Origin: Okamejei kenojei
Lineage: Eukaryota
NCBI GenBank assembly: GCA_035221665.1
Contig: CM069132.1
Coordinates: forward strand, 63,178,001 to 63,242,000
DNA: 64,000 nt
Reading direction: 5' to 3'
Position numbers and translations under genes: made by a program. Below are positions 481 through 63,195 of this stretch, in pieces (position 1 is the first letter of the stretch; every line of letters begins with the position of its first letter). The notes below the pieces were generated by a model. That model worked only from the letters and a program-made list of their open reading frames with translations. It ran no database searches and was not told the origin of the DNA.

Positions 481-1083
481 CAGAATACTATCTACAATAA
501 TACATCTGTAGAAGTTTGTGAGTGCAGTTGGTACCAACCATGTGCAGGGGCCATGACAGGCCATCCGAGATATTAACACCCAGGTGGGTTCCAGAACCCG
601 GTGGTGTGGGATTTCAGGCCTGTACTTCCTGGGCACACTCCAAATCTATGGAAAACTATTTGCCCTATTATGGATTCATTTTCCAATTGTATTTTTACAC
701 AAATCTCTTGCCTTTGCGCCGTCGTTTTAGTTTTCGTTTCACAATCTTGCATAATTGATGTTTTTGTCTGTGAGCGCCTATGATGCTGCTGCAAGCGGGA
801 TTTTCACGCGTGCACCTGTATCTCACCTTCCTTGTGTATAATCTGACAATAAACTTGACCCGTCACCCGAGCAGACTGTATCCGCCCAGAGACTCGCCGG
901 GGCTCGGGAGACATGTGAGAGGCATTGCGTGGCTCCTTGACAATCTATCCAGTCATTTAAACTCATTACGTGCTGAGCGTGAGGACGTTAGTGATAACGA
1001 GCAAGCTGCTCCGTTCCGCAGCCGGCACAATAAGTGGGGAATGTCGTTTATCCCAGGACAAAACAAGCCTTGCTGACAATCTT

Positions 1084-1223
1084 GGGTACAAAAGGCTGGA
1101 GAAACTCGGCGGGTGCAGCAGCATCTAAGGAGCGAAGGAGATGGGCGACGTTTCTTCAGACGTTTCTCCAGCCTTTTGTGCACCCTCGATTTTGCAGCAT
1201 CTGCAGTTCCTTCTTTAACACAG
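1084..1223. mobile_element. Miniature PLE-terminus insertion with inverted halves, HHR core deleted
   Basis: Antisense block ggtacaaaaggctggagaaactcggcgggtgcagcagc followed by sense tail cagcatctgcagttccttcttta; flanked by tgacaatctt at 1074-1083 and 1227-1236. Confidence 0.8.
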
Positions 1224-5150: not shown

Positions 5151-5409
5151 AACAGCGAGCTGCTGTGAGGTAGAAACCAGGCATAACAGGGTAGATGGCC
5201 CACTATGATGAACTAACTTTGGTTTTACATGAAAACACCAACAATTTCTCAATCTACTGCAGAGAAGCACAGACAAAAATCTGGTCGTTGGATTTATTTA
5301 TCTGGTGGCGTCTTGGTTCGTCCCAAGTGACCGATGATGACTAACTTCATCAATATACCATGTAGCACACACTCAATGACATGTGGGCAAACTGATACAG
5401 TGACAATGT

Positions 5410-5585
5410 TGTGTGTGAGCGCGCGTGAGTGTGTGTATGAAAATATGAGTGTGTATATAAGTGTGTATGAGATAATATGAGTGTGTGTTTGTGAGTGTGT
5501 GTGTATGTGAGCGTGGGTGTGTGCTTGTATGTGAGAGTGAGTGTGTAAGCGTGAGTTGTGTGTGAGCGTGTGTAAGAGTGTGTGG
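5410..5585. repeat. Imperfect (TG)n-rich microsatellite
   Basis: gtgtgtgagcgcgcgtgagtgtgtgtatg... visible directly. Confidence 0.9.
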
Positions 5586-5854
5586 GGGAAGTGGTTGTTA
5601 CACGGAGATACATTTAGTGTATCAGAGATTTTTATCTCTTGGTTTTCATTTTACAGATGTTTTTTTTCTCGCATTCTCCGTACACTGAGGTCTTCAGAAC
5701 TGAGCTTGCTGTTTAAAGATGCGCATATCTTATCTTTTTTAACGGGGGATAAAACGAATTGTAGCTTTTTACAGATCAGTGCATTTACGAACCTTTTTTG
5801 GCAGCGATAAATGTAAAAACAAGCGTCTGCAATGGGAATATACACAAAATGCTG

Positions 5855-7190
5855 GGGTAAGGTAGACAAAAATGCTGGAGAAACTCAGCGGGTGCAGCAG
5901 CATCTATGGAGCGAAGGAAATAGGCAACGTTTCGGGCTGAAACCCTTCTTCAGACTGATGGAGAGTGGGGGCGGGGAGAAGAAAGGAAAAAGGAGGAGGA
6001 GGAGCCCGAGGGCTGAGGGAGTGCTAGGAAGTGGAGGAGACAGCAAGGGCTAACGAAATTGGGAGAATTCAATATTCAGGCCACCGGGATGCAGACTGCC
6101 CAAGCGGAATATGAGGTGCTGGTCCTCCAATTTCCGGTGTTGCTCACTCTGGCCATGGAAGAGGCCCAGGACAGAGAGGAATGGGAGGGGGAGTTGAAGT
6201 CAAGAGCGAAACTCACTATCAAAACATGGAGGGGACCGGGGGACAGAATATTTTGGCAGCCGCGCACACTCACACACACATGCGCGAGGCTTTGGAGGCT
6301 CAATGCAGCACTAAATGCAGCTCAACTCTGCCTGTCTCACCGGGTTAACCTACAGCCCTGACTGGACTGACGGGACACCAGCACTGCTGCTTCACGCTGG
6401 CCATATTTCCCGCAAGCCCAGGCAGGTTAACCAGGCACAGTTGAGCTGGGTTTAGCGCTGTTTCTCTGCGCTGGCTGTGGGCCTGGGAGTGCAGCTCACG
6501 TCTGACTCCCGACCTCTCTGGCCCCCCGTGGGGGTGGGGTGGGCACTCGGGTGGGGACGGGACAGCGCCGGAGACCCGGGATCGATCCTGGCTGTGGATG
6601 AGAAGTGCTCAGCCACCGGGAGGTCAGGTTGGTTAATGCGGACCGAGCGGAGGTGTTCGGCGAAACGATCGCCAACACCGATATAGATCAGCTGACATCT
6701 AGAGCAGCGGATGCAATAGATGAGGTTGGAGGAGATGCAGGTGAACCTCTGTCGCACCTGGAACGACTGCTTGGGTCCTTGAATGGAGTCGAGGGGGGAG
6801 GTAAAGTGACAAGTGTAGCATCTCTTGCGGTTGCAAGGGAAAGTGTCCGGGGAGGGGGTGGTGCGGGGGGAAGGGAAGAATTGACAAGGAAGTTACAGAG
6901 GGAGCGGTCTTTGCGGAAAGCAGACGGGGGGGGGGGGGGGGGGGGGGGGGAGATGGGAAGATGTGGCGAGTGGTGGGGTCACGTTGGAGGTGGCGAAACT
7001 GACGGAGGACTATTTGTTGTATGTGAAGGCTAGTGAGGTGAAAGGTGAGGACTAGGAGGACTCTGCCCTTGTTGCGAGTGGGGGATGGGGAGAGAGAGCA
7101 GTGTTACGGGGTATGGAAGAGACCCTGGTTCGCGCCTCATCTATAGTAGGGGAGGGGAACCCCTGTTCCCTGAAGAATGAGGACAGGGGG
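5855..7190 (-). mobile_element. Neptune-type Penelope-like retroelement 3' fragment (GIY-YIG endonuclease, 3' UTR, HHR-bearing terminus), interrupted at ~6200-6590
   Basis: ORF 6452-6757 gives FTCISSNLIYCIRCSRCQLIYIG..DRFAEHLRSV..PVAEHF (GIY-YIG with CxxC); 6805-6847 (-) translates DTFPCNRKRCYTCHF, a Cys-rich linker typical of the Neptune group; HHR motif on the same strand at 5926-5953. Confidence 0.85.
5926..5953 (-). ncRNA. Minimal hammerhead ribozyme motif in PLE terminus (GUU triplet)
   Basis: Minus strand reads CUGAAGA-A-GGGU-UUCA-GCCC-GAAAC-GUU. Confidence 0.6.
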
Positions 7191-7191
7191 A

Positions 7192-7415
7192 CAGGACAAA
7201 TACTGGAGTAACACCACTGGTCAGCCAGCATCTCTGGAGAAGGAATAGGTGACGTTTCGGGTCCAGACCCTCAGGGGTCTCAGTTTGAAGAAGGGTCTCA
7301 ACGCGAAACGTCACCCATTCCTTCTCTCCAGAGATGCTGCCTGGCCGGCTGAGTTAGTCCAGCATTCTGTGTCCATCTTCGGTGTAAACCAGCATCTGCA
7401 GTTCCTTCCTGCACA
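7192..7415. mobile_element. Miniature PLE-terminus insertion, inverted halves, mutated HHR
   Basis: Antisense ...gtgacgtttcgggtccagaccct then sense cagtttgaagaagggtctcaacgcgaaacgtcacccattcc...cagcatctgcagttccttcc. Confidence 0.8.
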
Positions 7416-8659
7416 TTTTGGCTGCAGCGAGCATCACTGGATTGTCACAAGCCCCGGCAGCGCAAGGGTTACTGCGCTGCTCCGCCTCGGAGCAAGTCAT
7501 ACGCGGTGTTAGAGAGACCCCTAGCGCTCCTTCTGCGAACCAGCAACCACCCACGTCCCCGGCAAAACACAGGGGGCTGCGGGATCCCGTCCCCAGCAAG
7601 GGCCCGCCCAGCTTTCCATTTTCTTCAATTCAATTACAGTTGCTTGAACACTTATTGATTATTTTATTTCAGAAATGCAATTCTCTGTGATGGAAGAAAA
7701 ATGGGGCAATTGTAAGCAAACGTTTATTAAATTGCTGGCATCTTTGTCAAGGTGCGAATTAATCATCACAATTACAAGAAATTAGGATTTCGTTAAGGTC
7801 TGTATATATAACCCGAGTTATTAGATGTCAGATGTTACTTTAATAGTTGCTCTTTGACAAGAACTCGCTCCATACAAGGCATGATCTGCTGTCCGGTAGA
7901 TAAAGTGATTGCTCTCCAAACAGGTGGTCTTGCGCCCGAGACCTGGGGCAGGCAGGCAGGCAGTTATTTGAGCTTGTCGGCATTTTGTAGTTGGAATTAA
8001 CGACCCTGTATTTTTCTCATGGTAATTAGAGAAGGCAATGCAATAAAACCCGGAATCCGGCTCGGGGCATATTGGAGACAGGTAAAGTTGAATTTTAAAC
8101 ACATCCCTTTCAATTATAGAGTAGCGACTGCAGGTGTGGATCTGGATTTTAAAGACCAAGCATGCATTTTACTGTCTCCACCGCCACACCCTCGACCATC
8201 AAAGTTTATACATTTTGCATTTTTTAACTTTCACCTAGTTTAATTTTCTTTCTTTATTTTATCCCGAAAACAACCACTTAATTGAAAGTGTAATTCTGGG
8301 AACAGGCCCATGTCAAATGGTCGTTCCGTTTGGAAATCGAGCTGTTTTAGAGTTAATTTACAGTTGGTATCTGGGTGGGGGAGGGACTGTCTGCATGTAT
8401 TTGCACATAGAAGGCAGGGGATAGAAGCAGGCAAAATATTCGTACTAAAGAAGAAGATATTAATGAGGGTGATGCTAACTAATTGTAAGGAGAGTATGAA
8501 GGAGGACGGGGAGTTGGAGGGCAGAGTAGTAAGAATATGAAGTCCCAGGATGAGGTGAACCCCTTTATTTGAAGACACTGGCCAGGTGTCAGGACAATGG
8601 ATTTTCAAGATGCCACAATTAGAGTGACAATCTGGAGTCGTGAGTATTACATCGAAGAA

Positions 8660-8860
8660 CACAAGAAAAAATGGAGCAGGTGTAGGCCACCTGGCCCCTC
8701 AAGCCTGCCCCACCATTCACTGTGATCATGGTTGATTTGACCCGGACTCCTTGTCCCACTTTCCTAGTGCGATCTTGCAAAAATGTATCCATCTCCAGTA
8801 CCTCCACAACTCCCTGCACTGATAATCCCAGAAATTCACACCTCTGTAAGAAGTAATCTC
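8660..8860 (-). mobile_element. CR1-type LINE 3' UTR fragment
   Basis: ggagcaggtgtaggccacctggcccctcaagcctg..cattcactgtgatcatgg matches the CR1 3' ends at 10649 and 14379. Confidence 0.65.
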
Positions 8861-8994
8861 ACTAGGTAGGGGGAAATTCATCAGATACTTGTATTTAAGA
8901 GTAGGATTTTCAAAATGGAGCTGTTGGAGGACAGGGAGCCAATGTAAAGGACCAAGGGTGCAGATGATGGGTAAGGAGACAGAAATATTTGGAT

Positions 8995-9550
8995 TCTGAT
9001 TCAGATGAATTTGTTGTCACTTCCACAAGGATGCAATGAAATTCTTTGTCCGCATGAAGTTCACAGACTAAATAGTGTACATGGTAATGATTAATACAAC
9101 AATAAATACAACAACCGGTGCAAAACAGCAGAATGGTTCAAAGATTGCAGTGAAATTTGAAACTGCAAAAATAACTAAAGTGCATTAAAGATGCAACTCT
9201 TAGTTAAGAGTAGGATTTCAGTGAAAGAGTTGAATAGTTCAGCAGTTTGGTAGCAGTGGGGAAGAAGCTGTTATTATGTTTGGATGTCAAGACTTTCAAG
9301 TTCCTGTATCTTCTCCAAGAAGGTAAAGGAGAGAAAAGGGATTGGCCAGGGTGGCAGGCACCCTTGACGATACTTCTAACCTTCCTGATGCAATGCACAG
9401 TGAAGTTGGACTAGACGGAAGGCAGTGATGAGCATGTGATGGATGGAGCAGTGTTCACCACTCTCTGCAGATTCAGGTGGTCAAGAGCAGAACAGTAGCC
9501 ATACCAGGCTGAGATCCATCTCTCAGAATACTTATTCTTGTGCATCTGTA
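8995..9550 (-). mobile_element. Rex1/Babar-type LINE 3' fragment
   Basis: ORF 9204-9398 (SIVKGACHPGQSLFSPLPSWRRYR..NSFFP) and 9411-9632 (SAWYG..LQRVVNTA). Confidence 0.75.
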
Positions 9551-13410: not shown

Positions 13411-13500
13411 TGCAATTACCATCTTCTCAAGGGTGGTTATGGTAATAAATGGTGACCAGTAACACCCAATTCCACGTGAAGTCAACAGAAGTGTAGAGAG

Positions 13501-13620
13501 GGTACACAAAATGCTGGAGAAACTCGGCGGGTGCAGCAGCATCTATGGAGCGAAGGAGATAGGCAACGTTTCGGGCCGAAACCCTCGATTTTCCAGCATC
13601 TGCAGTTCCTTCTTTAACTT
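13501..13620. mobile_element. Miniature PLE-terminus insertion with 14-bp TSD
   Basis: agaagtgtagagag at 13487-13500 and 13621-13634; antisense body followed by sense tail cgattttccagcatctgcagttccttcttta. Confidence 0.9.
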
Positions 13621-19073: not shown

Positions 19074-19269
19074 ATATGTTGGAAGGAGCGGCAGATGCTG
19101 GTTTAAACCAAAGGTAGTCACAAAATGCTGGAGTGGGTCAGACAGCATCTCTGGAGAAAAGGAATAGGTGATGTTTTGGCTCAAGACCTTTCTCAACCTG
19201 AAACGTTACATATTCCTTTTCTCCAGAGATGCTGTCTGACCCGATGAGTTTCTCCAGCTTTTTGTGTCT
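19074..19269. mobile_element. Miniature PLE-terminus insertion, inverted halves, 13-bp TSD
   Basis: gtccttggtttat at 19061-19073 and 19270-19282. Confidence 0.85.
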
Positions 19270-20119
19270 GTCCTTGGTTTATGGTCTTGTTTGAAAGACT
19301 GTACCTCCTATCGGGTATCATCCTGACATCCTAACAGTGCAGTGTTTTCTCAGTATTGCACTGGAGAGATAGCCCTGAGTTTTTACACATAAGTCTCTTG
19401 GACCAAGATTTGAACCTCAATTCCCTGCAGGTATGCTAAGACTTGGTTTGAATACTTCCCAAAATGAATTTATAGCCCAAGTTGATCGAAGTATGATTCC
19501 AAAACCAGCTGAAGAAATCCAATCATTTCTAAAATTCTGAATTGTATTCCACTTCTTTCTCAGTTTTGTCTTCCCTTCTGAATTTCAAATTTGGTGATTT
19601 ACTGTATAATTTGTAGAGATCTTTTCAAAATTTCCTTTCTACTGACTTTTTTTAATGGCAGCATTAATCTCAGACATGAACTATGCAAAATTAAGTTAAT
19701 TTGTGTTTCTGCAGTATATTTCCACTGAGACACAGCAGACACAAATAATTTCATTCATATAAATTAAATATAGATCAACTAAATATGCCTACAAAATTAA
19801 TACTTTTCTCCATGGCAAGTTAAGTTTATATTCAACTAAGTTAAGTTTATATACATTTTTTTTAACTGTTTTACATTTCGTGTAAGCAATTTGGAATGGG
19901 AATGACCCCCTATAACTACTTATAAAGTCCCCTTCCCTACAAGTCTTTCTCACAAACGTTGCTCATTTGTTGACTTCAAATGTCTGGAATCATTCCTGTG
20001 GGTCTGTTGGTGTCTGGACAACCCCACTCCCTTGAATTTTCCCGACATGCCTATGAACTTTGGTCAGATTAAAAATAGATAAGGAATGGGAATAGATGCA
20101 AAGGGAAATCAATGTAATA

Positions 20120-20660
20120 CTGTTAGAGCATTGGTCATGGAAGCATTTCCATTCTGCCCCTCAGGCCAGTTCCATCATTCACTGGCATCATTCATTATCA
20201 ACATGCTGATCTTTTAATTCGGCATCAATTTCCTGCGCACACTACATTTCCTTTGATTTCATTAAATCCGAAAATCTATTGATTTATGTCTTGTACATAT
20301 CGTATATAACTCTCAAATATGTCTCAAATATATAGCTGAACTTCCACGACCTTGTGTGCTTTTTCCAGGGGAAGAAATTTCTTCTCATCTCACTCCTGAA
20401 TGGCTGAGCACCTAATTTGAGCTGTTGGTCATTGCATGTGAAACCTCCAATTTGTTTTGAAGTTTCGTTGCCTTTTTTTCTCATTCTGCTAAACTATTGA
20501 GATCGCTGGTCCAGTTTGCGTAATCTGTCCTGGTGGGACAATTTCTCCATCCCAGGAATGATCCTAGAGGACTTCTGTTGTTCTACTTTAATTACAAATA
20601 TATCCTTCGTTGGTGAAGAAAATCCGACCTGTTTTGCAGAATTTTCCAAGTGCTTTTTTG
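20120..20660 (-). mobile_element. Old CR1-type LINE 3' remnant
   Basis: ORFs 20494-20682 (RIIPGMEKLSHQDRLRKL) and 20284-20484 (FRSEMRRNFF). Confidence 0.65.
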
Positions 20661-21119
20661 AAATGAATGTAATCAAAAACATTTCTTCAAAACTCTTACC
20701 AACTCGCAGATTTGAGATTATGTTTGGAGTTCATAAGTATTAATTCCACGAATTGTTTACGTAATAAACACGCTTAATTTACTTGTAATTGTCTTGTTGA
20801 AATAACGATAAGAATGTATGTCAAGGTTGTTCTAACATTATAATCCGAACGTGGATGGAAAATTGCAATCGGAATATATGTAGGATGAAGAGGGCGTGCT
20901 GTTGCTTAGAATGATTTATGTATTTTCTCCGATTTATTGCAGAACGACTTGTGTTAAGTAATTGTGCATGCAATTCGTTCAATTGCATTCATATTAATCA
21001 ATGAATGAGATTAAACTATGTGCTATGCCGCGACTGTATTCAATGTGGCGGTGCAAAGTCTGGAATTTATTCTAGGGGTAATGAGCAAACATTAACAGGA
21101 ATGAGCGTAAGTCAATAGC

Positions 21120-21720
21120 TAGTGGGAAGCAGCGAGGCGGGAGGGAGAGGTGGCAGCGCGGCGGTGGGAGGGAGAAAGCAGCGCGGACGCGAAGGGAAGT
21201 GGGGACAACGCCGACGCGGGAGGGAGAAAGGACAGCGCGGAGGCGGACGTAGGCGGAGCCCGTGTTCTAGTGTGGTACGCATGCGCAGCTATGGATTTAC
21301 ATACTTAACTCTGATTGGCCATCGCTGTCGCATCCTTGCCTCGTTTGATTGGTGGATGCGGGGAAGGGCGGAGGCCGTGACGCCCTTGCTGACGTATGAA
21401 TCCCGCCCCTCGCTCCCCTGCGCACGCCCTGCTCCCGGGTTGGTTAATGTTGGTTTACGTCATAATGAGAAGCGAGGGCCTGATTATAATATACGTCACA
21501 GAGCGGACTCCGCCTCCTATAGGCCGCCCTCTACCGGCCAACAACCAATAGCAAGGCGAGGCAACGTTAAACGTTGCTAGCTACCCAATCACAGCGCGGA
21601 CGTCCCCCGGAAGTTGCATATTCATGAGCGGCCTCCAGAGTTTAGAGCCAATGAGAAGGATGTTTGACGCACCTCCCAGATCCCCCGCAGCGCATCCTGC
21701 TGGTGCAGGCAGAGCAGATA
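21120..21720. promoter_or_regulatory. CpG island, probable bidirectional promoter
   Basis: ATTGG at 21314 and 21348; CCAAT at 21545, 21585 and 21648; NRF1-like cgcatgcgca near 21278; GC boxes; CRE-like tgacgt/acgtca; ETS ccggaagt near 21607; POU-like ttgcatattcat near 21614. Confidence 0.75.
21523..21540 (-). promoter_or_regulatory. CTCF motif, leftward
   Basis: Minus strand TGGCCGGTAGAGGGCGGC versus consensus TGGCCASYAGRKGGCRS. Confidence 0.55.
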
Positions 21721-24700
21721 TTATCCACATTATCCATTATCACATTTAAACATTTTATTCGGGGAAATATTTCCTCTCTTGACTATTCTGTAACATCTTG
21801 GATTAGCAGTAAAACGAAGTTTCGATTTCATTTCCAGTAATGTCTTCAGTCACTATTTAATCGTTTTTCACGAAAAAGCAATGGGTTTAATGAAATAAAT
21901 TGCACAGAAAAATAGTTTCAAAAATGTTAGAGGGAATAGTTTGTTTTTAAAAATTTCGACATCGTTATCAAACATCAATGTTTTTTTTAATCATTCACAG
22001 ATTTAATTTTCTGCATATGAAATGTTATTAACTTTTGACACTACGGTTCATCAAAGTCACCGCGACATGCCACTGTAGTGGGACTGATAGGATTTAATAA
22101 ACGATTTATCCTTTAGGTCAGTGTTAATTGAACATGGGGTTAAAACACTGAATATTTCGAAATGTTTCCAAAACGTGTAGCGCAAGGTGGAATTTTCTTT
22201 ATGTTTACACGTATTGAATCTGAATCCCTGTCAGCTAACATTGTATAAGAAATATATTTGTTAAAATTACAACGAATTAATTTATTCGTTGCACTGCAAT
22301 ATCCGATAATAGTATCGAAATAATTGGCATGAATTTTTCGTACAAAAAGAGTATACGACAAAGATTCATGAAATTATAAATGTATTTCACAAGTACTTTA
22401 TAAAGTCAACAAACATATCGAACGAAAGGGAATTTAATAACTTCATTGGTTCTACGAGTACTTGGATTTTAGCAGAAAGATATTTTCCTGATTTTTCCCC
22501 ACAAATATATCTCATACAAGAACGAAATAAGCATTGATTAGCATGTTGGTATTCGCCGCTGACATGCTAAGTATAAAAATAGCATTAACGAAGTTCATCT
22601 AATTATTATAACATATCCAGAAATTACTACTAACTTTCTTACTTCCAGAATTCGTTTTTGTTTTATGCACATTTTTCTAACAAATTAATTATTATACTAT
22701 TAGAAATATAATCTGTTTACATTTCAAATCCTGGTTAATTTAAAACATTGGATTTTGTTGGAAAATGCTAGCTAAATGGGATGTGAGATCGTTTGTGGTC
22801 ATTGTAACGCTAAAATGTTAGTTTGCTCATTTGCAATCTGCAGCCTGAAATGACTGCATTTTCTCCGCAGTCGAAGGGAAATACACGGCTTCATTGAATT
22901 AGAAAAAAATCATATGTTACTGAGTAGCGAACTATAATATTAACTAATTGCATTGCTCATAAATGTTTTTGTACACGTTTAGGTGTGCATTCGGCGTTGA
23001 TACTGATTGGAACTAAACATGTTAGAAGGTAGACAAATCAATTTTGGGATGGAGAACGAGGTCACGGACACAGGGCGAATCAAGATCACGGCGCAAGAGC
23101 TTAAGTTTAATGGTCCTTGTTGGTTTTGCAAGTTATCTTGCCAAAAAAAAGTCGAAATAATCAAATAAATAACACGCGGCTGGTGCAGAGTTGCCGGTTT
23201 TTCGGGCGTGGTGTCATTCATAGTTTACAATGTCTATAAAATGTTCAGATCATTAAAGGCAGCTTGGGGGCACAGCCAGGAGTCTTGAATAACCCTTATT
23301 AATGGGATTGACATTCGAACATGAAAGCTTAAAATTCGCTATTGATTTGAAGGTGTGTGGTATTACATGAGATCGATCGAACCACTCCACACCGTGTTAC
23401 AGCTAATGCAATTCAAAGCTTGCAAACAGGAGTGAAGCGGCAGCTTGTCGCGTTTCTCGCCCTCCCGGCTTTACATCAAATATCTGATAACGCCATTCGC
23501 AGTTTTGGAAATCTCATCTTGCAAGTTTTGGTGTCGTGTTTAAAAATAAATAAATGATACTGTTAGGAAGTGATTAGCCACGGTCCTCAGAAGAAACGAT
23601 GCGGGTGAAATATCACCTCATGTTGCCGTCCTGTTCCCAGATTAATTGGGTAAACATCGCAAGGAACTTGTTGATTTATGTGGAAGGGGCGTCGTGTGTT
23701 TTAGGCTTAGTTGATAGCTGTAAAGTATAGTTACTTTGATTGGAGCGACTTGACTCATGCCGCCGCGCAAGGTAAATGTTATGCCTTTTACCCAGCAGGT
23801 TCGGCGATGGGGTCTCGCGTTGATTTATCAGTTTTGGCACTGCTCCAGAAACTAAAACGGTTAAAAAAGTATGTTTTTTTTTCTTTTTCTATTGATGTAC
23901 CCCAGTGTGAAATTAATATATCATTCTACGGCTGGCTGACTACCACATCATTAACCTCTGAGGATGACGCCGAGAAGTGGTGCGGCCTTAACTTTCATGA
24001 GTGTTTTCAGACTTCACGTGTAATCGAAGGGAGCAGGTTCGATCCCTATCGGTTTCTAGTAATTGTTTTTATTAAAGAAAGAGTGAAAGAACATTTCCTT
24101 CCGGGGGATCACTTGCAACAAATAGGAGTCTACCTCTCTCGACGACATAAGCCAAATAAAGGGTTGGCGCGCAACAACACCGGGTGCTGTCTGACTTCAG
24201 TCAATCCACCTTTAAACCCGAAAACGAACAACTCACCAGTTTGAAGAAAATAACAAATGGAAAATTCACCATATCTGGGGTATAGAGATGTATGGCAGGC
24301 TAGATCAACGGATAAATTAAACTTGTGTGATTATTCAACACAACATTCTACGTTGAATTTTCTGCAACCTTGTGGGATGCTGTAAATTCGATGCATGACT
24401 CAACCATCGCATAAAGGCATATCTGTGTTCAAAACTTGACAATAAATGAGCCAATTGGTAAAAAGTAATTGATCTTGATCTGTTCCCTTTCTCTCTACAG
24501 ATGCTGCCTGACTTGCAGTCTTTTTCAAATAATGTATTTATGCGGCGCAATGAAATTTAGCGGCAAAATTGTGTACGTTCATAAAACTGACAGTAATTTA
24601 ACGTGCCCATTCAAGATCAATCTTGTTTACCCATGATTTATAACTTTGAGGTTGGATTTCCGTATTGGATAGATTTTAAACAACGACAGCAGCATGGTTC

Positions 24701-24866
24701 CCTGCTTGCACATGTCACAGACGCGGGCATCTGTATGGGTTTGGAGAGGACTGTGTGTCATGCTCGAGTGCGAGTGTTCTCCATCATGCTTTCAATGATC
24801 GCGCCACACTTGATTTGCAGTAAGAAGCGACCACCCGGAACTATGGGTGCAAGCAGTACAATCTAC

Positions 24867-24994
24867 AGAGTGCCAGAGGAACTCAGCCGGTCACACGGCA
24901 TGCAATGGACAGATGATGTTTCGGGACGGGTCCCTTCAGTCTAAAGACATTTTGGGGTCAAGATTCCAACATCTGCAATCTCCTGTCAGCAATT
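24867..24994. mobile_element. Degraded miniature PLE-terminus insertion
   Basis: ggaactcagccggtcacacggca..tgtttcgggacgggtcccttcag..ccaacatctgcaatc; caatctac flanks both sides. Confidence 0.65.
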
Positions 24995-25800
24995 CAATCT
25001 ACTCAGATCAAATGCACAATCCTTACCAAATATCTAGGCAGACCCATGGAGTTGACTCCCCTTTGCCAGAGATGATCTCTTTATCTCCATGCGTAGGCAT
25101 CCTACTGGTGTTAGTGAGAGATATGTGTTATTGCCTCTCCAACACACGCAAAGGAAATGTCAAGGTGCGGATAGAAGTAAGGAGCGACAGTTTGCAAATA
25201 ACAACAAACAGTGCCCGCACTGCCATGACGAGCCAGATACCATTTTATATTTGAGTGTTATATTGATTGTAGTCGAACAATATTTTTGAGTGCATCCAGT
25301 CGAATGCCCGCAGATTGTGAAATATTTTCACGATCCATCTCTACGACACTCAGTCACTGCATTAAAACGGCATATGTTCTCTGTTTGAATGGTCACCCGT
25401 TGTATGGTCCACACTTAGGCACCAACTGATTACAAGTGTTTAATTTCCTAAATCGAGTAAAAACAATTGAACAAAGTACACGGTGTCAATTGTATTACTG
25501 CCACAAAGGCCAATTTGAATATCGGCACATATTCTCAGCTCTTAAACGGATAAATATAAAAAGGCATCCGTTCCTTTTACGTGGTTAACCGATATGTGAC
25601 AGCAAAAACAATGTATCAGCAAGGGTATTTTTAATAAGACCATATGCAGCTCACTCACCAATGGAATATGAGTGCACTAGACAGGTACAAACTGCTAAAG
25701 GAACGCATGGAAGACGACGTTTCGGGTCGGAACCCTTCAGACTATGTATTAGTAAAAGAGGATGGTTTTGTTCATCGAAAGATCCTCTTATTGAAACTGT

Positions 25801-25947
25801 GTAGGAAGGAACTGCAGTTGCTGGTTTAAACTGAAGATAGACAGGAAATCAGTCTGAAGAAGGGTCTCGATCCGAAACGCCACCCATGCCTTCTCTCTAG
25901 AGTTGCTGCCTGTCCCGCTGAGTTACTCTAGCATTTTGTGTCTATCC
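25801..25947. mobile_element. Miniature PLE-terminus insertion with 12-bp TSD; HHR core with GCC triplet
   Basis: tattgaaactgt at 25789-25800 and 25948-25959; ctgaagaagggtctcgatccgaaacgcc at 25854-25881. Confidence 0.9.
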
Positions 25948-27439
25948 TATTGAAACTGTCATTGTGGAAACGTGGATTATCATCTTGATTTTGTTTTTCG
26001 GAAAGGGGAAAACCAAATTCAATCCAGAATGATGCCAGGCCGTGCACAGTATGGTGATGATTCAAAAGGCCACAATCACTCTGCGTGACATGAGGAGATA
26101 GGGCTCAACACGTCAAATAAAAAATACTCAGCAAAATACCTATAACCCAGGAGAACAAGGGGCAAATAAATCGTGCTAAAATATTGAGAATGAGATTGTA
26201 ATATATAGATAAAGAAATAGTAACTGCGATCGTTTCAAGCTATACATCATTGAAATACTGTACATGGGTCGCGCATGTTTAAAGAAGACATGAGAATGAT
26301 TGGTGAGTTTTCGGTGATCTCAGCTATGACGGGGGCTTTAGGAAACGTTGCAGGGATTTGATGCTGAATTCTAATCTCAAGAGAAGTACCCATCCCTCCA
26401 ATCCTTCATCGGATTCGATGTCCTGCAATTATTTCAACATCTGCGCAGCGCTCGGTCTCTGATTTGACATACAGTATTTGTATCATCTATTTACTTTCAC
26501 AGAGGATCGTTGGCTGCAATCCATCCAAGAACTGCCAGGTCATCCGCTTGTTTTGACGGGTGCAGCTGGCAGCAGCATCGCGTTTTCTGTCTTCTTTAGT
26601 TGGGTGACGCGACGGCTGGCTCTGGAAGAGCTCTTACCGCAGACGGTTCACGATGCACTGATTTGGGACATAATAAGTGGAAGAAGCAGCGCTTCAGTTC
26701 AGCGAGTTTGCGGACAGCTCTTTTCAGTTGCTAAAGATGTTTCAAAAGAGAAAACATCAAAATCACCATTTATAATAGAGCGTTTACGGCGATCTAAATG
26801 ACATGTCCGGGATGAGAGGGTGAAGATTTATTTTACGATTGCGCACTCGCATTATTTACATAAATGAGCATTCAGTCAACGACATGTATCGTGAACCCTC
26901 GGGTCCACTCCCGGGGACACGTCTAGCGTTTGTTATTGTTTCCCATATTTCAAATATCCTTGTGTCATAGAGAGGCCCTTCTGCCCACAGAGTGTCTCCC
27001 AGCTTTCCAGACCAATCTTATCAATTTCAAGTCCTCATTATTCCCCGCAATCTACTCTCTCACACGCATCCATCACCACTCAACAATACTCCAACTTCTC
27101 CTACCGTAAATCTACACCATTAATCCTGCATTAATATCATTTGGTGTGTTTTGCTTTATGAATTCTATCCAACGTTGTATATGATTTACGTAACCTCACT
27201 ATATTTACATTTTATTTTTACGCATGCCGATTAGACTTTTGTTTTCAATAAATCACATTGCACGATGTAAAATTAGTGCCGATTGATGAGTACTTTGTGC
27301 ATTTTGAAAGGTATTATTTTAGCTGTCGGCGATGCTGCCCCTCTTCATATGTATGCCATGAGTTAACTACTGTGGATTAATGCAACAACATCCAGCCAAG
27401 TCTCCATTGCAACATTCATCATGCATTAGTTGATGTGTT

Positions 27440-27870
27440 TCGCTTTGGGCTCCCCGGTGCTGGAGGCAATGAGGTGCGGCGGCAGCGTCTGATCGCGCCG
27501 CCTCGTCGCTGCCCCTGCGCACACGTCACTGCGACTTCTCCGGGCGGAAGTGAGCCGGCTCCCCGAGTCACGTGGGCTTCCCTCGACGCCTGCGCATTAA
27601 TCATGGCCTTTTGGGGACGTGTCAATCATTCCCTGTGACAGATGACCAATCACCAGTCGCAACGTCAGCCGACCAGTTGGATTGGCTGAAGCCTTGGTGT
27701 CGTCACGCACTGGAGGGCGTGGCTTCGCTGGCGCAGTCTCACTGCCGTCGGCCGAATGAGGGCGAGCGCCCCACCGTGTCCACAGCAGGTAGCACAGCGA
27801 GTCAATTCTTTTCTTTGCCCCGCTTCGAGCAGCGATTGAGACCAGCAAGCGGCAGAGTCCATCTCACCAA
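27440..27870. promoter_or_regulatory. Second CpG island, promoter-like
   Basis: ETS/GABP CGGAAGTG 27545-27552, E-box GTCACGTG 27567-27574, CCAAT 27646-27650, ATTGG 27681-27685, dense CpG. Confidence 0.65.
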
Positions 27871-30295
27871 CTTACTGTCATTGCTTACACTGTAATACAA
27901 TTAATTTGGATTGCTTTATTTAAGGGATAATAATTGTTCAAATTTGCACATTTACCGAAAATAAAAGTTAACGAGCTTGAAAGATACTGCACGTTCTTTC
28001 CAAAGTCAGCTGATCATCTAAACACCGAAAATCGGAAAATGAAAGATTTGCGTTTCAATGGTTCAAACAGCCATTTGAAGTTCGCATGATTCATGGTAGA
28101 CTGCAGTACAAAATACTGCGTTCCCAATTTTTTTAAAAAAGGTATAACATAGAGGGCCTCCGAAATCTTAAAACAAGTGAAAATTGACAAAAAATAAAAT
28201 TGCCCCAATGTTTTTGGAACTCTTAATAAAGAGTATATTGTTGAGTTTTCAAAATAATAATTTTTAAAAACGTTTTTTCGGAAATAAAATTATTTTGGAA
28301 ATAATATTATACTTAAATTAGTCCTGGTCGTTTTCAAAAGTATGATTTGAAATGCTGAAAATCCAATTCCTTTGAATTATTTAAAAAAAATGCTTAATAT
28401 GTAAAGAAGTACAGAACTCACTAAATACCCACTGAAGCATTAGTCCGGCCTGTGTGTTTCAGCATTCTCTGTTAAAATATTCCTCATCATTTTAATTTCT
28501 GAAGCAGGAATTAATTGATTCTTCGGCTCTTTACATTTGTAGCTTTTTACACAAAAGGACTCGTCCATCTCTTGTATTCCCTTAATATTACATCGTCCTC
28601 CAATTACGCGCTGGTTTCAGACCCGAGATAGTTCGCTCATCTGCCCCATCTCCCGCCCCCCACAAATAAGTATCTTTCAGTCAACCGTTCATTTTAAACA
28701 GAGGACTCTAACAACCAGATTACTACCGTGTTTGCTGCGAAGAATTGTGTTTATTTCATAAATCAAGCATTGAAAGCTTTGTTTTTCCTTTAATGAATAT
28801 TGTTTGATTTCCTTTCAATCATCCAGGTTATATTATGTTAAATGTGCCGAGGGTAGGACCACGTGATAATCCATCTTGCAGCACAAGCAACTGTTTCTTA
28901 CTTAGTTTCTTATAAAACTTGTTCAGTTTGGTAGGGTGTGCGGCTCAAGTTGCTATCATTGATTTCCATATTGAAGCTGCCCAGTGCAATGGTTTTCTCG
29001 TGTTCAACACATATGGTAGTGATTTAAAGATGTTTTGCTAAACACTACTTGCATTATTTTATTAATGCGGATAATCGTAATTTGTGAGATAGATATTCAA
29101 TTGGTAGGAACTTGCTAAATCTAGTTACGCCTCGAAAAATACTTTAAATAAAGAACAAACAGATAAACCTTTTTTGAAATGTTACTGTATTGAATAATGT
29201 AATTACAATATGCGCACCTCTGACATATCTCTACAATTTGAGACGGGTTTGTATATGACAACCCAATTACAACTGTGACATTCGGATTAAGCATCTATTT
29301 AAATTGATTTCAAGTGTTTGTTGCATTTATTTGCTTCCCATTTGAGTGTCTGGATGACAAGATGCAGACAGAAAATTCCTTGCCTGCTCTAGTTTTCGAC
29401 ATTGCAGTCATTAGGTGCAGAGAACAGACAGAGACCCCACATGTAACTTAGTGCAAATACACTTAAGGGTATCTTTGAAGTTTTGTCAGAGTGCATTTGG
29501 TGTTACAGTAGCATTAGGTTGAGTGGGTTTTGTTCAGTAGCTGGCGAGAGATGGAGACCAGGTCTCTCAGTGACTGCTGATTGACACGTCCAATGCGGGA
29601 GGTGCCCTTCATACCTACAGCACCAAGTATAAAAAAAAAACTTCCAATAGTAATTATATATAGAAAGAAACAGCTCATAACAGCGTGCGGAAAACGCACA
29701 AAATGCGGGTTTGAACGCCTATTAACAACTTGAATTGACTTTATATACTGGGACGAAACCCGAAAGCAGTTCGGTGCCAGTTGAGAAATTTGAATGAAAT
29801 TCTGATGAAACAAAATCAAATAAACTAACCATCACACGAACAGGTTCAGCGTTCACTGATATATCTTTCAAAGTTGTAATGAAGTACTTTTCGTATTTTA
29901 AAACATTAAGCTCACTGTTAGTCGAAAAAGTTAATAACGTGCCCAACTTTATTTCTTTGCGAATTACACGTGAAAGTTCTCTATTAGAATGCTCAATTAC
30001 ATATCTCCAAAGCTGAACAACTTATGATTCGTGGGTCGGATGCCGAACTCCTCGTTGTGTAGGTTTTTGTTTTAGCAATGACATGGTTTCCAAAAACATT
30101 CGCGCTTTCTGTTGAATACATTTCATGTTAATACTTTTAGGACTGGAAATGTTATATATTTTTCATTCAACCTGCACCCATATATTTTAGAAAAAATGTT
30201 TTCCAGAATCAAAATGCTTTAATTTAATGCTCGAATTAGTAAAAGTTTACCGTGCAAGATAAAAGTTAAAACCAAGAATCAGCGATCAGCGATGG

Positions 30296-30322
30296 TGCAG
30301 TCATCTCCACCAGAGGGCGGTA
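30296..30322 (+). promoter_or_regulatory. Strong CTCF motif with upstream module, rightward
   Basis: TGCAG (30296-30300), 6-bp spacer, then CCACCAGAGGGCGG (30307-30320). Confidence 0.75.
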
Positions 30323-32552
30323 GACACCAGAGGCAGCTCCAACCTGTGAAAAGAGACCACGTCTTGTTTAAAATGACAGATTTCTAAACTCTGCCCACAG
30401 TTGCAGTAGCTTTGGGTCAAAAACTTTATGTTGACAGTTGAAATAAAATGTCCTGTGTGAAATTATCAGCAAGAATAGAAAATAGATTGTCCTGTAGTGT
30501 TCAGCTTATAGTAACGGTGGAAGTGTTGTCACTTTTAGCGCTGTTTATGTCTTGATTCTGCCTGAAATGGCTTTCACACCTCTTAAATAATGGAAAATAA
30601 TAGCTGAGTATGCCACACCTCGTGAAAATTAAAGTTTCATACCACCGTCCAATATTAACAATACGAAGGATGTAGCTTCTGTAATTTCTGTTCTACCTGA
30701 TTGTACCCATTCATTATGAAAAAAAGGTATCATCATTTGGCACCAAGGCACCACATCATGAATGCATGTCGTTGTTTACCAATGGCCCGGCTTCATCTCT
30801 CACCGTGTGAAATATGAAGCGGTTAACTCTGAAACCTCGACCCATAATTAACGCTGCACATTGTGGGAACGATGCGATCTCTCAGCACCGTGGCAGTGCA
30901 TAGACCATGAAGGGACCGCAGTTTGGTGGGATCCGTCACGCAACCGTGATTTTTATTCCAACCCCAAATGATGGCAGTGTGATATTCCAAAACAAAATAG
31001 CAATTGGCCACACTTCATGGCTGAGATGTCGGAGCGCCTGTGAGAACTGTTAAAATTGATCAAGATGTCCTCGAAGTGGCATTGACAGGTTCACATTAAC
31101 GTTTAAGCCAGCACGAGTTTGATTTTCGTGCCAAGCTACAGCACATGTCCCGCTGCTTTACCAGAGCGATGGTTATATTTAAAACCAAGAGAAAAGACTG
31201 AATAAATAAACACCTGGGAAGATATATAAATAAGCTGCAACGAGGCTGTGGGGAAGGGTGGAGTGCAGCGGCACACATGAAGTGGCCTACAGCATTGCTG
31301 GATATCAAGAGACAATGACTGAAATGTATTCCATAAAAACAGAAAGTGAGCGCCGCTGCCTGTGATTAATTGCCGATCACCGAGTAATGACAGACTCCGG
31401 GACTGAGTGCAGTGTACACAGCATAGCTCATTGCTGCTGTCTCCGCACTCGCTCCAACAGTCTGCAGCCCGCGTTCAGCTGATCAGTATATCATCGAAGC
31501 TGCACACATTTCCGTGCTTTTTATTCCATTTTTGATTCAAGTCCGCTCCATGCCCCCTTCTCACTATTTACAGTGCAACGTGGACATTTTGTTAGTGACC
31601 GCGCGGTGTTTGAGAAACCCCTTCAGATTTGTGAAACCGACGATTCATCAATGTTCTGGCGGCTTTAGCGCCTCATTGTTCTCACGACGAGACACACTGC
31701 AGCACTACTGAAGTGCTCTCAGTTACAGAGCAAACACATCAGAGCAGGGCACAAATTAAACGATGTTTCATTAAAAAAAAAAGTGTTTTGTTGTTGAGGA
31801 TATTTGATTTGCTATTCCGACTTGAGATGGACACTGTAACCATTGTAACACGGAAGGGGGGGGGGGGGGGGGGTGAGGTCAGTTTTCGACCTTGCCTGAA
31901 CTCGGAGACCCTGATACGGGACCCGTGCCTCTCCCCATGTATAACGGGGGGGGGGGGGGGGGGGGGCCGCCGCCGCAAGAACCTGCCTTTAAACAGGGCG
32001 CCGAGTGAGGACTCTTTAGGTCAAAGCAAACCGTGGATCTAATCTTAGCTTTTAAAAACTACAAATCTCGGTAAACTCGACCGGTCTTAGAAACTGGCAA
32101 GGTTCTTGATGGAAAATAACACAAAACAAAAACACCAGTTATGTCAACAGGGGAAGCGCTGTGGAGAGCATGGGATTACAAGGGACTCAAAGGCGGGGCT
32201 GTTCTCCAGTCTCTGCCTTCGTTCCTCAAGTGGCCTCAGGCAGGCTGCTTGCGGTTGATCGCTTGCTTAGTTCCCACAGAAAACCATTTCAAGTGCTCCA
32301 TCGCTTTTTGCAACATCTTCCCTCTATTTGGCTGCTGCTATTTTGATCAGCAGTGTTCCACGGGCCCCTGTTAACCTCTATATTTACAGCCTCCAATTAA
32401 CACATTATAAAAACACATCCACTCCAGACAACCCGTTGCTACTCGGAAGCAAGAAGTTTGCAATTCCATTGATAGTTTAAATACTTGGCCCGACTACATC
32501 GGAAAAGCAAATTCAAAAATACAAATCGAGCTGAGAATATCTAGACGACTAT

Positions 32553-33050
32553 GGAGACGCAAGGAAGTACAGATGCAGGAATCTTGAGCAAACCTAAAAA
32601 TGCTGCTGAAAGTCGGCAGATTTCACCCACGTCTTTTCCAGCTCCGCCCCTCCCCTCCCCTACTACAATCAACTGAAGAGGGCCCGACCCGAAAGGTCGT
32701 ATGTCCATTCCCTCCACATATGCTGCCCGACCCACTGAGTTCTTGTATTTTTGCTGAGTATCCAAAGGACTGTTCGGTGGCAGCATCTCCCCGGTAAAAC
32801 AGAGTGTAATTTTGTTGCACGTAAATATTATACCATGCAACACATTTAAACAGAAGACAGACACAAAAGGCTGGAGGAACTCACGGGTCAGGCAGCATCT
32901 TTGGAGAAAAGGAATACGTGACTTTTCGGGTCTGAAGAAGGGTCTCGAGCCGAAACGCCACCTATTCATTTTCTCCAAAGATACTGCCTGACCCGCTGAG
33001 TTACACCAGCTTTATGTGTCTGTCTTCGGTTTAAGTCAGCATCTGCAGCC
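32553..33050. mobile_element. Two adjacent PLE-terminus insertions with inverted halves
   Basis: ctgaagagggcccgacccgaaaggtc near 32673; ctgaagaagggtctcgagccgaaacgcc at 32932; flanking antisense blocks. Confidence 0.75.
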
Positions 33051-42662: not shown

Positions 42663-45083
42663 AGGCTCTGTCTCACCAGCATGCAACTGCATGCGACTAG
42701 CCCGACAAAATCGGAAGCGGGGGTCGCGTGGAGGTCGGGCGTCCCCGAGCGAGTTGGCGCGAAGTTCGTGCGAAGTCCGAGGGAAGGTTGCGCGTGACGT
42801 CATTTTTCCTCATATAAACGGGACTGCAGGCTGCTTGCTATTCCACGATCATCATGGAAGAGACACAGAAACAGATACAGATTGCATTGCTGCAACAGCA
42901 AGAGAGGCTTCTGTTAGCAGCAGCCCTCATGCTGGCAGGTCAGCTGGGCAGGGGTTCAACAAGGAGTTCAACAAGGAAGGCTATGAAGAAACCCAGGAAG
43001 AGGTCTTTGTTCCGGATGAGACCCACTTTGGGCCAGTATGAGAACATGGTGACCGATCTGCAGCAGAAAGATGAGGCTGCCTTTAGAAATGTCACCAGGT
43101 TACCCCCTGACCTGTTTCAGGAGCTAAAGACACGAGTCGGACCTCTTCTGCAGAAAAGAGACACCGTCATGCGGAAGGCACTGGAACCAGGCCTGCGCCT
43201 AGCCATCACCCTCCGCTACCTTGCGTCAGGGGATTCCTACAAGAGCCTCTCGTGCAACTTCCGTGTGGCTCACAACACCATCAGGCTAAGGTCGTCCGAG
43301 AGACCTGTGATGCCATCAACAATGCATATGATGAAATGATTGACTGCCCTAGTACGCCTGACGAGTGGAGGATAGTGGCGCACGGCTTTCAAACCAGATG
43401 GAACTTCCTGCACACATGTGGGGCAGTTGACGGGAAGCATGTGGCCATCCGGTGTCCACCCAGGGGACGTTCTATGTACTTTAACTACAAGAAGTTCCAT
43501 TCCATCGTGCTGTAGCTGTGGTCGATGCAAACTACAACTTCCTGTTTGTGAATGTGGGCACACCTGGCAGTGCCGCAGATGGAGGGATCTGGAGAGAGAC
43601 CTCCCTTGGGCAAGCACTGGAAGAAGGGAAAGCAGGCCTTCCTGACCCAGTACCTCTACCGGGAGAAGACAATCCTGACATCCCCTACGCATCGGTTGGT
43701 GATGATGCCTTCGCACTCAGGCCATGGATGATGAAGCCATACCCTCACAGGCAGATGTCTAGGGAGCAAAGGATCTTTAATTACAGGCTGTCCAGGGCTA
43801 GGAGGGTCGTGGAAAACGCTTTTGGTATCCTTGCTAGCAGATTCAGATTCCTGCTGACTACAATGGAGCAGGAGCCCGAGAATGTGCAGACCATTGTCTA
43901 CGCGGCATGCGTCCTCCACAACCTGACCCGCACCAGAGGTGCAGCAGCAGCCATGGTGGAGGGTGACACGATGGACAAACAGACAGGAGAAGTCACACCA
44001 GGATCTTGGAGAGATGCAAGACAGGCTGCACCGATGGTGGCACTAGGTGCATTGCAAGGAAACACCAGCAACAAAAGAGCAGAGGGACCATCTCTGTGCT
44101 TACTACAACTCCGAGCGAGGTAGTGTACCCTGGCAGAACAATATGTGGCGAGGATCAAAAGCAAACATCCCACACCACAGAGGACCACCACTGCAGGAAC
44201 TGATCTAATAAAAGGAGGATCTATGTACGTTAATGGAAGGTTTTTGTATGTGAAATGAGTAATGAGTAATACTGTGATAATAATAATATCTCACACATCG
44301 CACATTGTACTTTCTTTGAAATGTCATCATTTTAAAAGCGGATAAATGCATTTGTCTGCTTTACATGATGTCTCATGACACTCTTTGCAATTCAATGCAG
44401 TTCAATGCCTGTGTGTGTTTCATTTATCTAATAAAGCGTGGACTTTATATGTGAGATGCATTCCAGTATTAGGCATGGTTTCCATATGAGAGATCTACTC
44501 CATGATTAACAACTGCTTTTCCCACTACACGAAAAGGTTACACTGAAGTTTAATAATCAAGTTGTGTGTGAGGTTATCTCCGATAAAGACAAAGACCCAT
44601 GACTTTATAAGAATCAATTCCTTTATTTACTGCAAACAAACATGATCCTGGGGTTCCTTGTTCTCCTCATGTTCTCTGGAGTTCGATGCAGCTGGGAAGG
44701 ACTCCGTTGCAAGAAATTGCAAGTGATGGTTTTTTTCAAAACGCGCGCGCATTTTATGTGTCAGGGTAAAGGCGGGCTGACTAACAATGCGTGTCGCATA
44801 GCGTCGGGCAGTGACGTCATCGCGCAATGCCATGCGGAAGACGCACGACATCGAGACGTTACTTGCGTCCTCGATGCGGCTGCGGCCCACAGGATTTTGC
44901 CACGTGGGATTTTTGAACAGTGTCGGTTTTTCGGAGCTCCGCGCGATGGCGGGACCAGCTCCGCACAACTCCACGCGGCTCCGGCGATCGAAGTGGGACC
45001 GGCCCCGCGACGCCGGACGGCTCAAACGACCATGTTATGTCGCGCTCATCGCAATGGAGTTGCATACTGCTGGGACAGGCCCT
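42663..45083 (+). mobile_element. PIF/Harbinger DNA transposon (~2.4 kb) with imperfect TIRs and TTA TSD
   Basis: Left end aggctctgtctcaccagcatgcaact; right end reverse complement agggcctgtcccagcagtatgcaact; TTA at 42660-42662 and 45084-45086; encloses the transposase. Confidence 0.88.
42854..44123 (+). pseudogene. Frameshifted Harbinger (DDE_Tnp_4 / HARBI1-like) transposase
   Basis: Three consecutive ORF pieces: LRLAITLRYLASGDSYKSL; WNFLHTCGAVDGKHVAIRCP..YFNYKKFHSIVL; VDANYNF..GSAADGGIW..VGDDAF..MMKPYP..FNYRLSRARRVVENAFGILASRFR..ACVLHN. Confidence 0.93.
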
Positions 45084-59400: not shown

Positions 59401-59894
59401 TAATTTGGCAGGCCAGGGTATCACTTAAAGGCTCAGACGTAGAATTGTAGAAACAAACAGCAGAGAAATGGACCTTTGGTTCACCTTTTTTGCTGACCCT
59501 ATCTACATTATGCCACATTCTGTCCCATTTCCCCATGTTAGCCCCTTATCCCTCTATGCCTTTCCTATCCAATTTCCTGTCCAAATGCCTTTTAACTGTC
59601 ATTATTGTATCTGCCTCCACCAATTTCCCTGACTGCTCATTCCAAATATTCACTACTTTGTGTGAAAAACATACCTTCAGTTCTGCCTTAAATTTCTCCC
59701 CTCTCATCTTAAATTCGTACCTCTGGTTTTAGAGTCCTGGGGGAAAAAAATTCTATCTACTCTATCTACGACCCTTTATAATTTTATACACCTCTATAAA
59801 ATCGCCCTCAGCATGCTATGTTTCAATGAGCATAACCCCAGCCTTTTGAATTTCTCATTAACAACAGCTCTTAATTCCAGGCAACATTCTGGTG

Positions 59895-60041
59895 TTTCCC
59901 TGATCCCTGACCAGTCTGAAGAAGGGTCTCGACCCGAAACGTCGCCTATCTCCTTCGCTCCTTAGATGCTGCTGCACCCGCTGAGTTTCTCCAGCTTTTT
60001 GTGTACCCTCGATTCTCCAGCATCTGCAGTTCCTTCTTTAA
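59895..60041 (+). mobile_element. Miniature PLE-terminus insertion with complete HHR core and 12-bp TSD
   Basis: aacattctggtg at 59883-59894 and 60042-60053. Confidence 0.9.
59916..59943 (+). ncRNA. Minimal type I hammerhead ribozyme motif
   Basis: CUGAAGA (59916-22), extra A, stem II GGGUC/GACCC, GAAAC (59936-40), GUC (59941-43); stem III is the palindromic ACGU; stem I only about 2 bp. Confidence 0.7.
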
Positions 60042-60325
60042 AACATTCTGGTGAATCTCTTTTAAACACTCTCTTTTGCAACCACATCCTTCTGTTAGTC
60101 TGGCGACCAGAAATGTATCAAATGCTTTAGATGTTGTCATAGTCATAGCGTCATAGAGTACAGCGTCCACATACAGTGTGGAAACAAGCCCTTTAGCCCA
60201 ACTTGCCCACACTGGCCAACATATCCCAGCTACACTAGTTCCACCTGCTTGCGTTTGGACCATATCCTTCCAAACCTATCCTGTTCATGTACTTGTCTAA
60301 ATGTTTCTTAAACGTTGGGATAATC

Positions 60326-62893: not shown

Positions 62894-63195
62894 ATCCCCA
62901 GGGCCAGATAGGCTGCATCCCAGAGTACTAAATCCCCAGGGCCAGATAGGCTGCATCCCAGAGTACTAAATCCCCAGGGCCAGATAGGCTGCATCCCAGA
63001 GTACTAAATCCCCAGGGCCAGATAGGCTGCATCCCAGAGTACTAAATCCCCAGGGCCAGATAGGCTGCATCCCAGAGTACTAAATCCCCAGGGCCAGATA
63101 GGCTGCATCCCAGAGTACTAAATCCCCAGGGCCAGATAGGCTGCATCCCAGAGTACTAAATCCCCAGGGCCAGATAGGCTGCATCCCAGAGTACT
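62894..63195. repeat. 38-bp minisatellite, ~7.9 identical copies, CR1-derived
   Basis: Unit atccccagggccagataggctgcatcccagagtactaa starts at 62894, 62932, 62970, 63008, 63046, 63084, 63122 and 63160. Confidence 0.97.

Follow-up and report, generated by a model that had tools for sequence, protein, structure and literature searches.

Positions 59895–60041 of the window (the whole 64,000-nucleotide stretch of DNA analyzed) hold a 147-bp insert that lies between perfect target-site duplications (TSDs) inside an old CR1-like LINE. The 12-bp TSDs, 59883–59894 on the left and 60042–60053 on the right, agree at 12 of 12 bases and form the longest repeat at both insert junctions, as an earlier sequence-only reading of this DNA had described. 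Because the last G of the left TSD also fits the element, the 5′ junction of the insert is uncertain by one base.

The host, located by tblastn on the minus strand (59522–60133), is the decayed C-terminal ORF2 region of the LINE, split by the insert. Genomic LINE frames align from one side of the insert to the other with E values as low as 6e-25, minus-strand translation of the two flanks gives a single decayed ORF2 C-terminus, and the TSD bases code for the same three residues on either side. Insertion into an older CR1 fragment, as first proposed, is thus supported, CR1 being the name that we presume for this LINE from one of its motifs. The LINE assignment rests on the protein-level match; when uninterrupted relatives of the empty site were sought by blastn in a 1.4-Mb genome sample (140 segments of 10 kb each, placed at round coordinates on the larger contigs), 79 left-flank, two right-flank, and no contiguous matches were obtained. 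In a contig assembled from run X19, whose type is uncertain, the right flank is matched from exactly 60042 and preceded by 92 other letters; this contig may represent an empty site in another organism, and its joint is absent among the joints listed.

On the plus strand, the insert carries a minimal type I hammerhead (59914–59945), recognized from its sequence and from pattern counts, with a predicted cut 3′ of 59943. Stem I has two base pairs (59914–59915 with 59944–59945) and is followed by the core CUGAAGA (59916–59922), an extra A between positions 9 and 10.1 (59923), a 4-bp stem II with a 4-nt loop (59924–59927 with 59932–59935), GAAA (59936–59939), the palindrome ACGU (59939–59942), and the GUC triplet (59941–59943). 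Every minimal type I residue (CUGANGA, GAAA, NUH) is present, together with the extra base at 9/10.1, the G10.1-C11.1 pair, and a palindromic stem III. The earlier claims of a complete core, of a stem I of about 2 bp, and of the minimal hammerhead type of Penelope-like elements (PLEs), for which all four PLE traits were found, hold on this evidence; the 5-bp stem II with a 2-nt loop that had been drawn cannot close. Across the window no Rfam family reached its gathering score, and in 59700–60200 none of the Rfam hammerhead families matched at E values up to 10, as is to be expected for a hammerhead that lacks loop 3 and has a stem I of 2 bp. GAAACGUC is also retained in a copy at 53667 on the same strand.

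Minimal hammerheads have been described in the pLTRs of metazoan PLEs, including Xena, Poseidon, and Neptune of fish (Cervera and De la Pena 2014, PMC4209133). The present motif resembles those described there in its type I core, extra nucleotide between 9 and 10.1, G10.1-C11.1 pair, palindromic 15.2-16.2 positions, and lack of loop 3, and in its dispersal as thousands of single motifs from truncated PLEs. Its 4-bp stem II contrasts with the 7–8 bp given for the Schistosoma form, and its 2-bp stem I is like that of D. virilis, compared with 4–5 bp in Schistosoma (PMC4209133).

The probable source of the insert was reached via an RT search of the genome, at a locus designated L041 (G000:C6:42871200–42881199), where 7698–7552 on the minus strand is identical to the insert at 147 of 147 bases. 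These are the last 147 bases of the L041 pLTR plus its 32-nt tail. L041:3630–8078 (minus strand) is a full-length partial-tandem PLE with its own TSD of 12–14 bp and an intact, open frame of 1,197 codons, and is a candidate for a recently active copy. Its order on the minus strand is pLTR with tail, open frame, and second pLTR without tail, the pLTRs being two direct 495-bp repeats with 494 matches and a period of 3,954 bp. Two more long frames were seen, one of 803 codons (L042) about 15 kb from this element and one of 1,064 codons (L043).

The L041 frame encodes RT, a Cys-rich linker, and a GIY-YIG nuclease, and its first Met, 36 nt past the tail, opens a protein of 1,184 residues with a long proline-rich insert in the N-terminal third. 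Matches to RVT_1 (E 4.5e-6) and GIY-YIG (E 0.004) are both below the Pfam cut-offs, with motifs intact: YIDD in the RT, a CX4CX2C linker (residues 1064–1072, between RT and nuclease), and two Cys within the GIY-YIG core. The closest named relatives of the protein are in sharks and rays (65–73% identity over 54–80% of the query), which makes a cartilaginous fish the likely host of the element, and a sequence search of its RT against solved structures gave no match at E 0.1. The first Met also sits in a 5′ splice donor-like sequence (L041:7520–7510, minus strand), and no spliced joint matching it was found among the joints listed. The insert also contains an ATG (59966), but the short frame that it begins is not in register with the main ORF, and an indel behind this ATG in one subfamily led us not to take it as the start.

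Other loci connect the terminal sequence to the same coding region. The RT region is continuous with the hammerhead in 18 of 20 loci chosen by RT similarity, the other two having internal deletions, and 12 of 30 loci chosen by a 36-mer across the core extend more than 200 bp upstream into the element; longer copies continue into the GIY-YIG nuclease coding region and then RT. The family thus has the single ORF with RT and C-terminal GIY-YIG of EN+ PLEs, joined to the terminal sequence of the insert, as well as their partial tandem of two direct pLTRs (in L041), an optional 3′ tail of 30–40 bp (here 32 nt), and an inverted 5′-truncated partner with a TSD of variable length. A CX2-5CxxC linker between RT and nuclease is described as a mark of Neptune or Nematis (PMC8557442), and the vertebrate PLEs covered in a 2026 preprint are Neptune and Poseidon only (bioRxiv 10.64898/2026.07.22.740005). 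From the linker motif and these published taxon ranges, the element is likely of Neptune type.

We therefore read the insert, with a probability of about 0.9, as a young 5′-truncated pLTR-plus-tail copy of an intact PLE, likely of Neptune type, in which the hammerhead is inherited cargo and is predicted to be inactive at this site. Its TSD and the absence of any change from L041 over 147 bases agree with the comparatively recent retrotransposition first suggested, lack of change from the master implying youth. The same identity runs against the idea of a separate non-coding ribozyme-bearing unit, the insert being the 5′-truncated end of an autonomous, protein-coding PLE.

Features of this family have precedents in the EN+ PLEs described by Craig et al. 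(2021, PMC8557442): Neptune and Nematis share the RT, the CX2-5CxxC linker, and the C-terminal GIY-YIG with two internal Cys, and EN+ PLEs share the pLTR-forming partial tandem, the optional tail of 30–40 bp, the inverted 5′-truncated partner, and the variable TSD. The proline-rich insert of the 1,184-residue protein and the very high copy number set it apart from the elements described in that paper. PAc (Poseidon, Anolis carolinensis) is similar in that two RT start sites define the tail and targets are AT-rich, and in that its published account gives no sign of cleaved RNA as the insertion template (Frangieh et al. 2024, PMC11167929). The PAc ORF, however, starts in stem II and RT starts within the ORF (PMC11167929), whereas in the present family the first Met comes after the hammerhead and both start sites. 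The Cys linker, absent from PAc by clade, is present in L041. PLE hammerheads, tails, inversions, and mass truncation are already in print; we found no description of this PLE family in cartilaginous fish in the literature, and Repbase or Dfam may already list this one.

The intact core is common, contrary to the rarity initially attributed to it. Pattern searches of the 2.76-Gb genome gave 23,839 exact occurrences of the core 36-mer and 85,930 matches to the full-core hammerhead pattern, and a structure descriptor gave 43 matches in 1.4 Mb, with none in any of the three reversed controls. The claim that this is the only copy with every core residue plus GUC holds within the window, where a second intact core (5953, minus strand) has GUU in place of GUC, but fails genome-wide. 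These ∼86,000 intact cores of one lineage compare with ∼4,000–9,000 motifs reported for coelacanth and Xenopus (PMC4209133). In the 1.4-Mb sample, 439 matches overlap the unit, 40 of them young, which extrapolates to ∼860,000 related ends and ∼79,000 young ones, and the family fills about 5% of 600 kb sampled. The window itself contains 26 other fragments of the unit at E < 0.001. The insert is real, well explained, and ordinary, and as one of so many ends the locus is unimportant in itself.

Of 235 copies, 87 have an inverted partner no more than 80 bp upstream and 33 are tandem. Head-to-head fold-back pairs of the PLE end in the window (1071–1218, 13498–13617, 32861–33019, 7196–7408, and 19082–19267) are this usual inverted insertion form. 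Elsewhere, an insertion at L026:1400–1700 (G000:C1:2018405–2018527) has two direct tandem hammerhead cores 44 bp apart and an inverted third; it is a natural close dimer and a better substrate for cleavage tests than the 59895–60041 insert.

The abundance of short copies raises the alternative that the short unit is an independent non-autonomous element, SINE-like or a non-LTR retrozyme, driven by an internal promoter of its own and dependent on the PLE protein in trans for its copying. Short copies far outnumber the ORF region (161–167 matches to the hammerhead region vs 0–2 over most of the ORF in 600 kb), most share the same two ends, and some are the tandem copies counted above. The Penelope promoter is also reported to be internal, within the pLTR (PMC2377424), and animal non-LTR retrozymes, like the insert, are short type I hammerhead units described as derivatives of PLE pLTRs, with PLE-derived examples reported in the sole chondrichthyan sampled (bioRxiv 10.64898/2026.07.22.740005). 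Against these points, the insert and many young stubs are 98–100% identical to the autonomous pLTR with no private changes, and long copies of the same subfamilies run into coding sequence. Retrozymes are, moreover, defined as tandem repeats (bioRxiv 10.64898/2026.07.22.740005), with a hammerhead in each consecutive unit of the array; the insert is instead a single unit between TSDs, a monomer with a non-modal 5′ end, and identical to the autonomous element. We consider independence very improbable and retain truncation of the autonomous PLE as the origin of the insert.

Folding models bear on whether the hammerhead is active where it lies. The fold of the 147-mer is no more stable than shuffled sequences (z = −1.24). 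In the monomer, stem I has a probability of 0.0 and stem II one of 0.01–0.02, the latter because 59930–59933 pairs with 59941–59944 in a predicted competing hairpin (59930–59944, plus strand) that masks stem II and the GUC. Across 25 copies with G at the 59944 position, this hairpin has a median pair probability of 0.89 and stem II one of 0.01; in copies with A after the cut site (n = 12) the hairpin is weaker, with a median of 0.21. Together with the 2-bp stem I, a predicted hairpin over the cleavage triplet supports the doubt expressed earlier about monomer activity. The dimer form suggested in its place is not favored by the nearest-neighbor model (−6.7 kcal/mol for a double hammerhead vs −9.6 for two free stem II hairpins). 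The energies leave out core tertiary contacts and protein, and activity is compatible with these figures.

A different function for the locus, in which the insert's hammerhead is an active ribozyme retained because it cleaves a host transcript, appears extremely unlikely. All core residues and the GUC are intact, and the copy at 53667 could pair through the palindrome if co-transcribed. Intactness in the insert is, however, a consequence of youth, there being no change in 147 bases and 21 of 53 subfamily copies being intact as well, and the stem probabilities and dimer energy given above are unfavorable. Minimal PLE hammerheads are reported to be uncut as monomers and weakly cut as dimers (PMC4209133), and none of the 78 non-repeat frames tested (the longest or nearest of 414) was recognized as a host exon.

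Sequence comparisons among copies point to constraint elsewhere, in the elements that produce them. Among six subfamily majorities, the hammerhead region varies at 2 of 31 columns vs 17 of 61 downstream (P = 0.027), a difference suggestive of constraint on the master elements. Mismatches within copies amount to 63 of 1,350 (4.7%) at core positions vs 348 of 5,130 (6.8%) at other invariant positions; this deficit could reflect selection, but is confounded by the choice of copies on a matching region and by the A-rich core. The check for covariation of stems I and II that had been proposed gave pair changes across copies that are all one-sided and none double-sided (first pair of stem I, U-A in 92 and U-G in 40 of 135; last pair of stem II, U-A in 120 and U-G in 6). 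A structure-descriptor search of the 1.4 Mb for other hammerhead lineages able to show covariation recovered only the PLE lineage, in the 43 matches already mentioned.

The 3′ ends of young copies are bimodal, with 29 of 40 at the equivalents of 60003–60014 and 11 of 40 near 60041, thus with the tail; the two sites are ∼32 nt apart. In the insert, the rest of the pLTR beyond the cut (59946–60009, plus strand) runs to the first end point, where the 3′ pLTR of L041 also ends, and the 32-nt tail (60010–60041, plus strand), present in L041 and in young copies, runs to the second. PLE tails have been traced to two internal RT start sites (PMC11167929), and the two family end points probably correspond to two RT initiation sites, the first at ∼60008. 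TSDs of 9–16 bp with 34% GC were detected in 33 of 93 simple copies and in none of a swapped-flank control. An 8-bp stem (59964–59971 with 60018–60025) joins pLTR and tail and is unchanged in all six subfamilies; since it forms only in tail-containing RNA, it may be an RT recognition structure.

The 5′ ends of young copies also cluster. A family-wide hot spot with the initiator-like sequence YCAGT (59911–59915, plus strand) is where 19 of the 40 young copies begin, no more than 5 nt from the 5′ edge of the hammerhead (P = 5e-15 vs uniform starts). Another 13 copies begin within 39 nt downstream of the hot spot, and 8 begin upstream, beyond a 27-nt stretch adjoining the hot spot in which no copy starts. 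Among 213 non-extended copies of all ages, 102 have alignments that begin within the first 4 nt of the shared region, where short upstream extensions are indistinguishable. Few copies start within 2 nt of the cut site: none of the 40 young ones and 5 of the 213 of all ages, against 2.7 starts per nt just upstream. The insert itself runs through the hot spot and begins 16–20 nt further upstream, with a pyrimidine-rich remnant of the 3′ UTR/pLTR (59895–59910, plus strand; L041 7698–7683, minus strand) ahead of the hammerhead and its 5′ truncation point there.

YCAGT fits the Pol II initiator consensus and is common to subfamilies with differing upstream sequence. A rotifer PLE has been described with an initiator-like TCACT (PMC3846280). 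Most simply, and with somewhat better than even odds, the hot spot can be read as the putative RNA start: on transcripts of unit length, RT would begin close to the 5′ end and leave the template on reaching the cap. Loose ends at the hot spot in assembled run contigs (type uncertain) only mirror the genomic pattern. The ACGT motif was considered as a DPE-like element and rejected, as its spacing did not fit.

The main rival to an RNA start holds that the conserved YAG before the core is a 3′ splice site, with splicing giving stem I a new 5′ strand, activating the ribozyme, and explaining the pile-up. It contests the mechanism of stub formation, not the PLE identity, and we judge it unlikely. 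A pyrimidine tract and YAG do precede the core in all long copies shown, in four subfamilies with different upstream sequence, and in D. virilis Penelope the 3′ end of an intron maps to the 5′ end of helix I (PMC4209133). A common upstream exon, however, is missing from short copies, in which TSDs abut the hot-spot start or are separated from it by up to about 11 unrelated bases, and many starts retain 1–4 bases that splicing would remove. Several long copies also have a CTRAY-like motif, but its A precedes the AG by just 2–6 nt, a shorter distance than branch points usually have, and one subfamily lacks the motif. Among the joints listed (15 of 97), none joins a GT donor to this AG.

Under the preferred reading, the insertion can be outlined as follows. 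The GIY-YIG nuclease of the element would have cut AT-rich DNA with a 12-nt stagger, as expected from PLE biochemistry (PMC11167929), and RT would have begun internally on element RNA at the second of the two start sites, so that the insert carries the tail, copied 147 nt, and then stopped. As the insert reaches 16–20 nt beyond the usual 5′ start, it was likely copied from a read-through RNA originating in an upstream repeat. In most other stubs, RT would start near the 5′ end of a unit-length transcript and run off at its start, which coincides with the hammerhead edge. The lack of a pile-up of copies at the cut site makes uncut RNA the likely template for insertion, and the hammerhead probably acts in the RNA of the master element only, as a dimer or with help from PLE protein. 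In PAc, cleavage is reported to require protein and to be dispensable for insertion in vitro (PMC11167929).

A more speculative proposal, which we regard as unlikely, is that the hundreds of thousands of stubs are the footprint of the transcript's two copying ends, RT starting ∼95 or 128 nt past the cap and running off 3 nt before the core. In that case the mRNA would begin with the hammerhead as its first 31 nt, stem I would be limited to 2 bp by the start site, and binding of PLE protein or of a second transcript would trigger the hammerhead to remove the cap from the element's own mRNA; the A-to-G change of the youngest subfamily would tighten this switch through a stronger masking hairpin. 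If so, the hammerhead would be a translation feedback switch and not a tool for excising unit-length RNA. The family offers a test system for such questions, given the intact, presumably recently active ORF of L041 and copy ends that map two probable RT start sites and the likely RNA start within a few bases. This map makes the in vivo role of a PLE hammerhead testable with exact constructs and a clear prediction.

Other features of the window were also noted. A region of ∼13 kb (20000–33000) is nearly without common repeats and CpG-rich (observed/expected 0.7–1.26), resembles the regulatory domain of a developmental gene, and gave no Pfam match in the frames tested. A 212-codon frame at 43485–44120 (plus strand) matches DDE_Tnp_4 (E 4e-27), which identifies it at the sequence level as a putative Harbinger-type transposase or a domesticated relative. 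At 62894–63195 lies a perfect minisatellite of 7.9 copies of a 38-bp unit with 100% matches.
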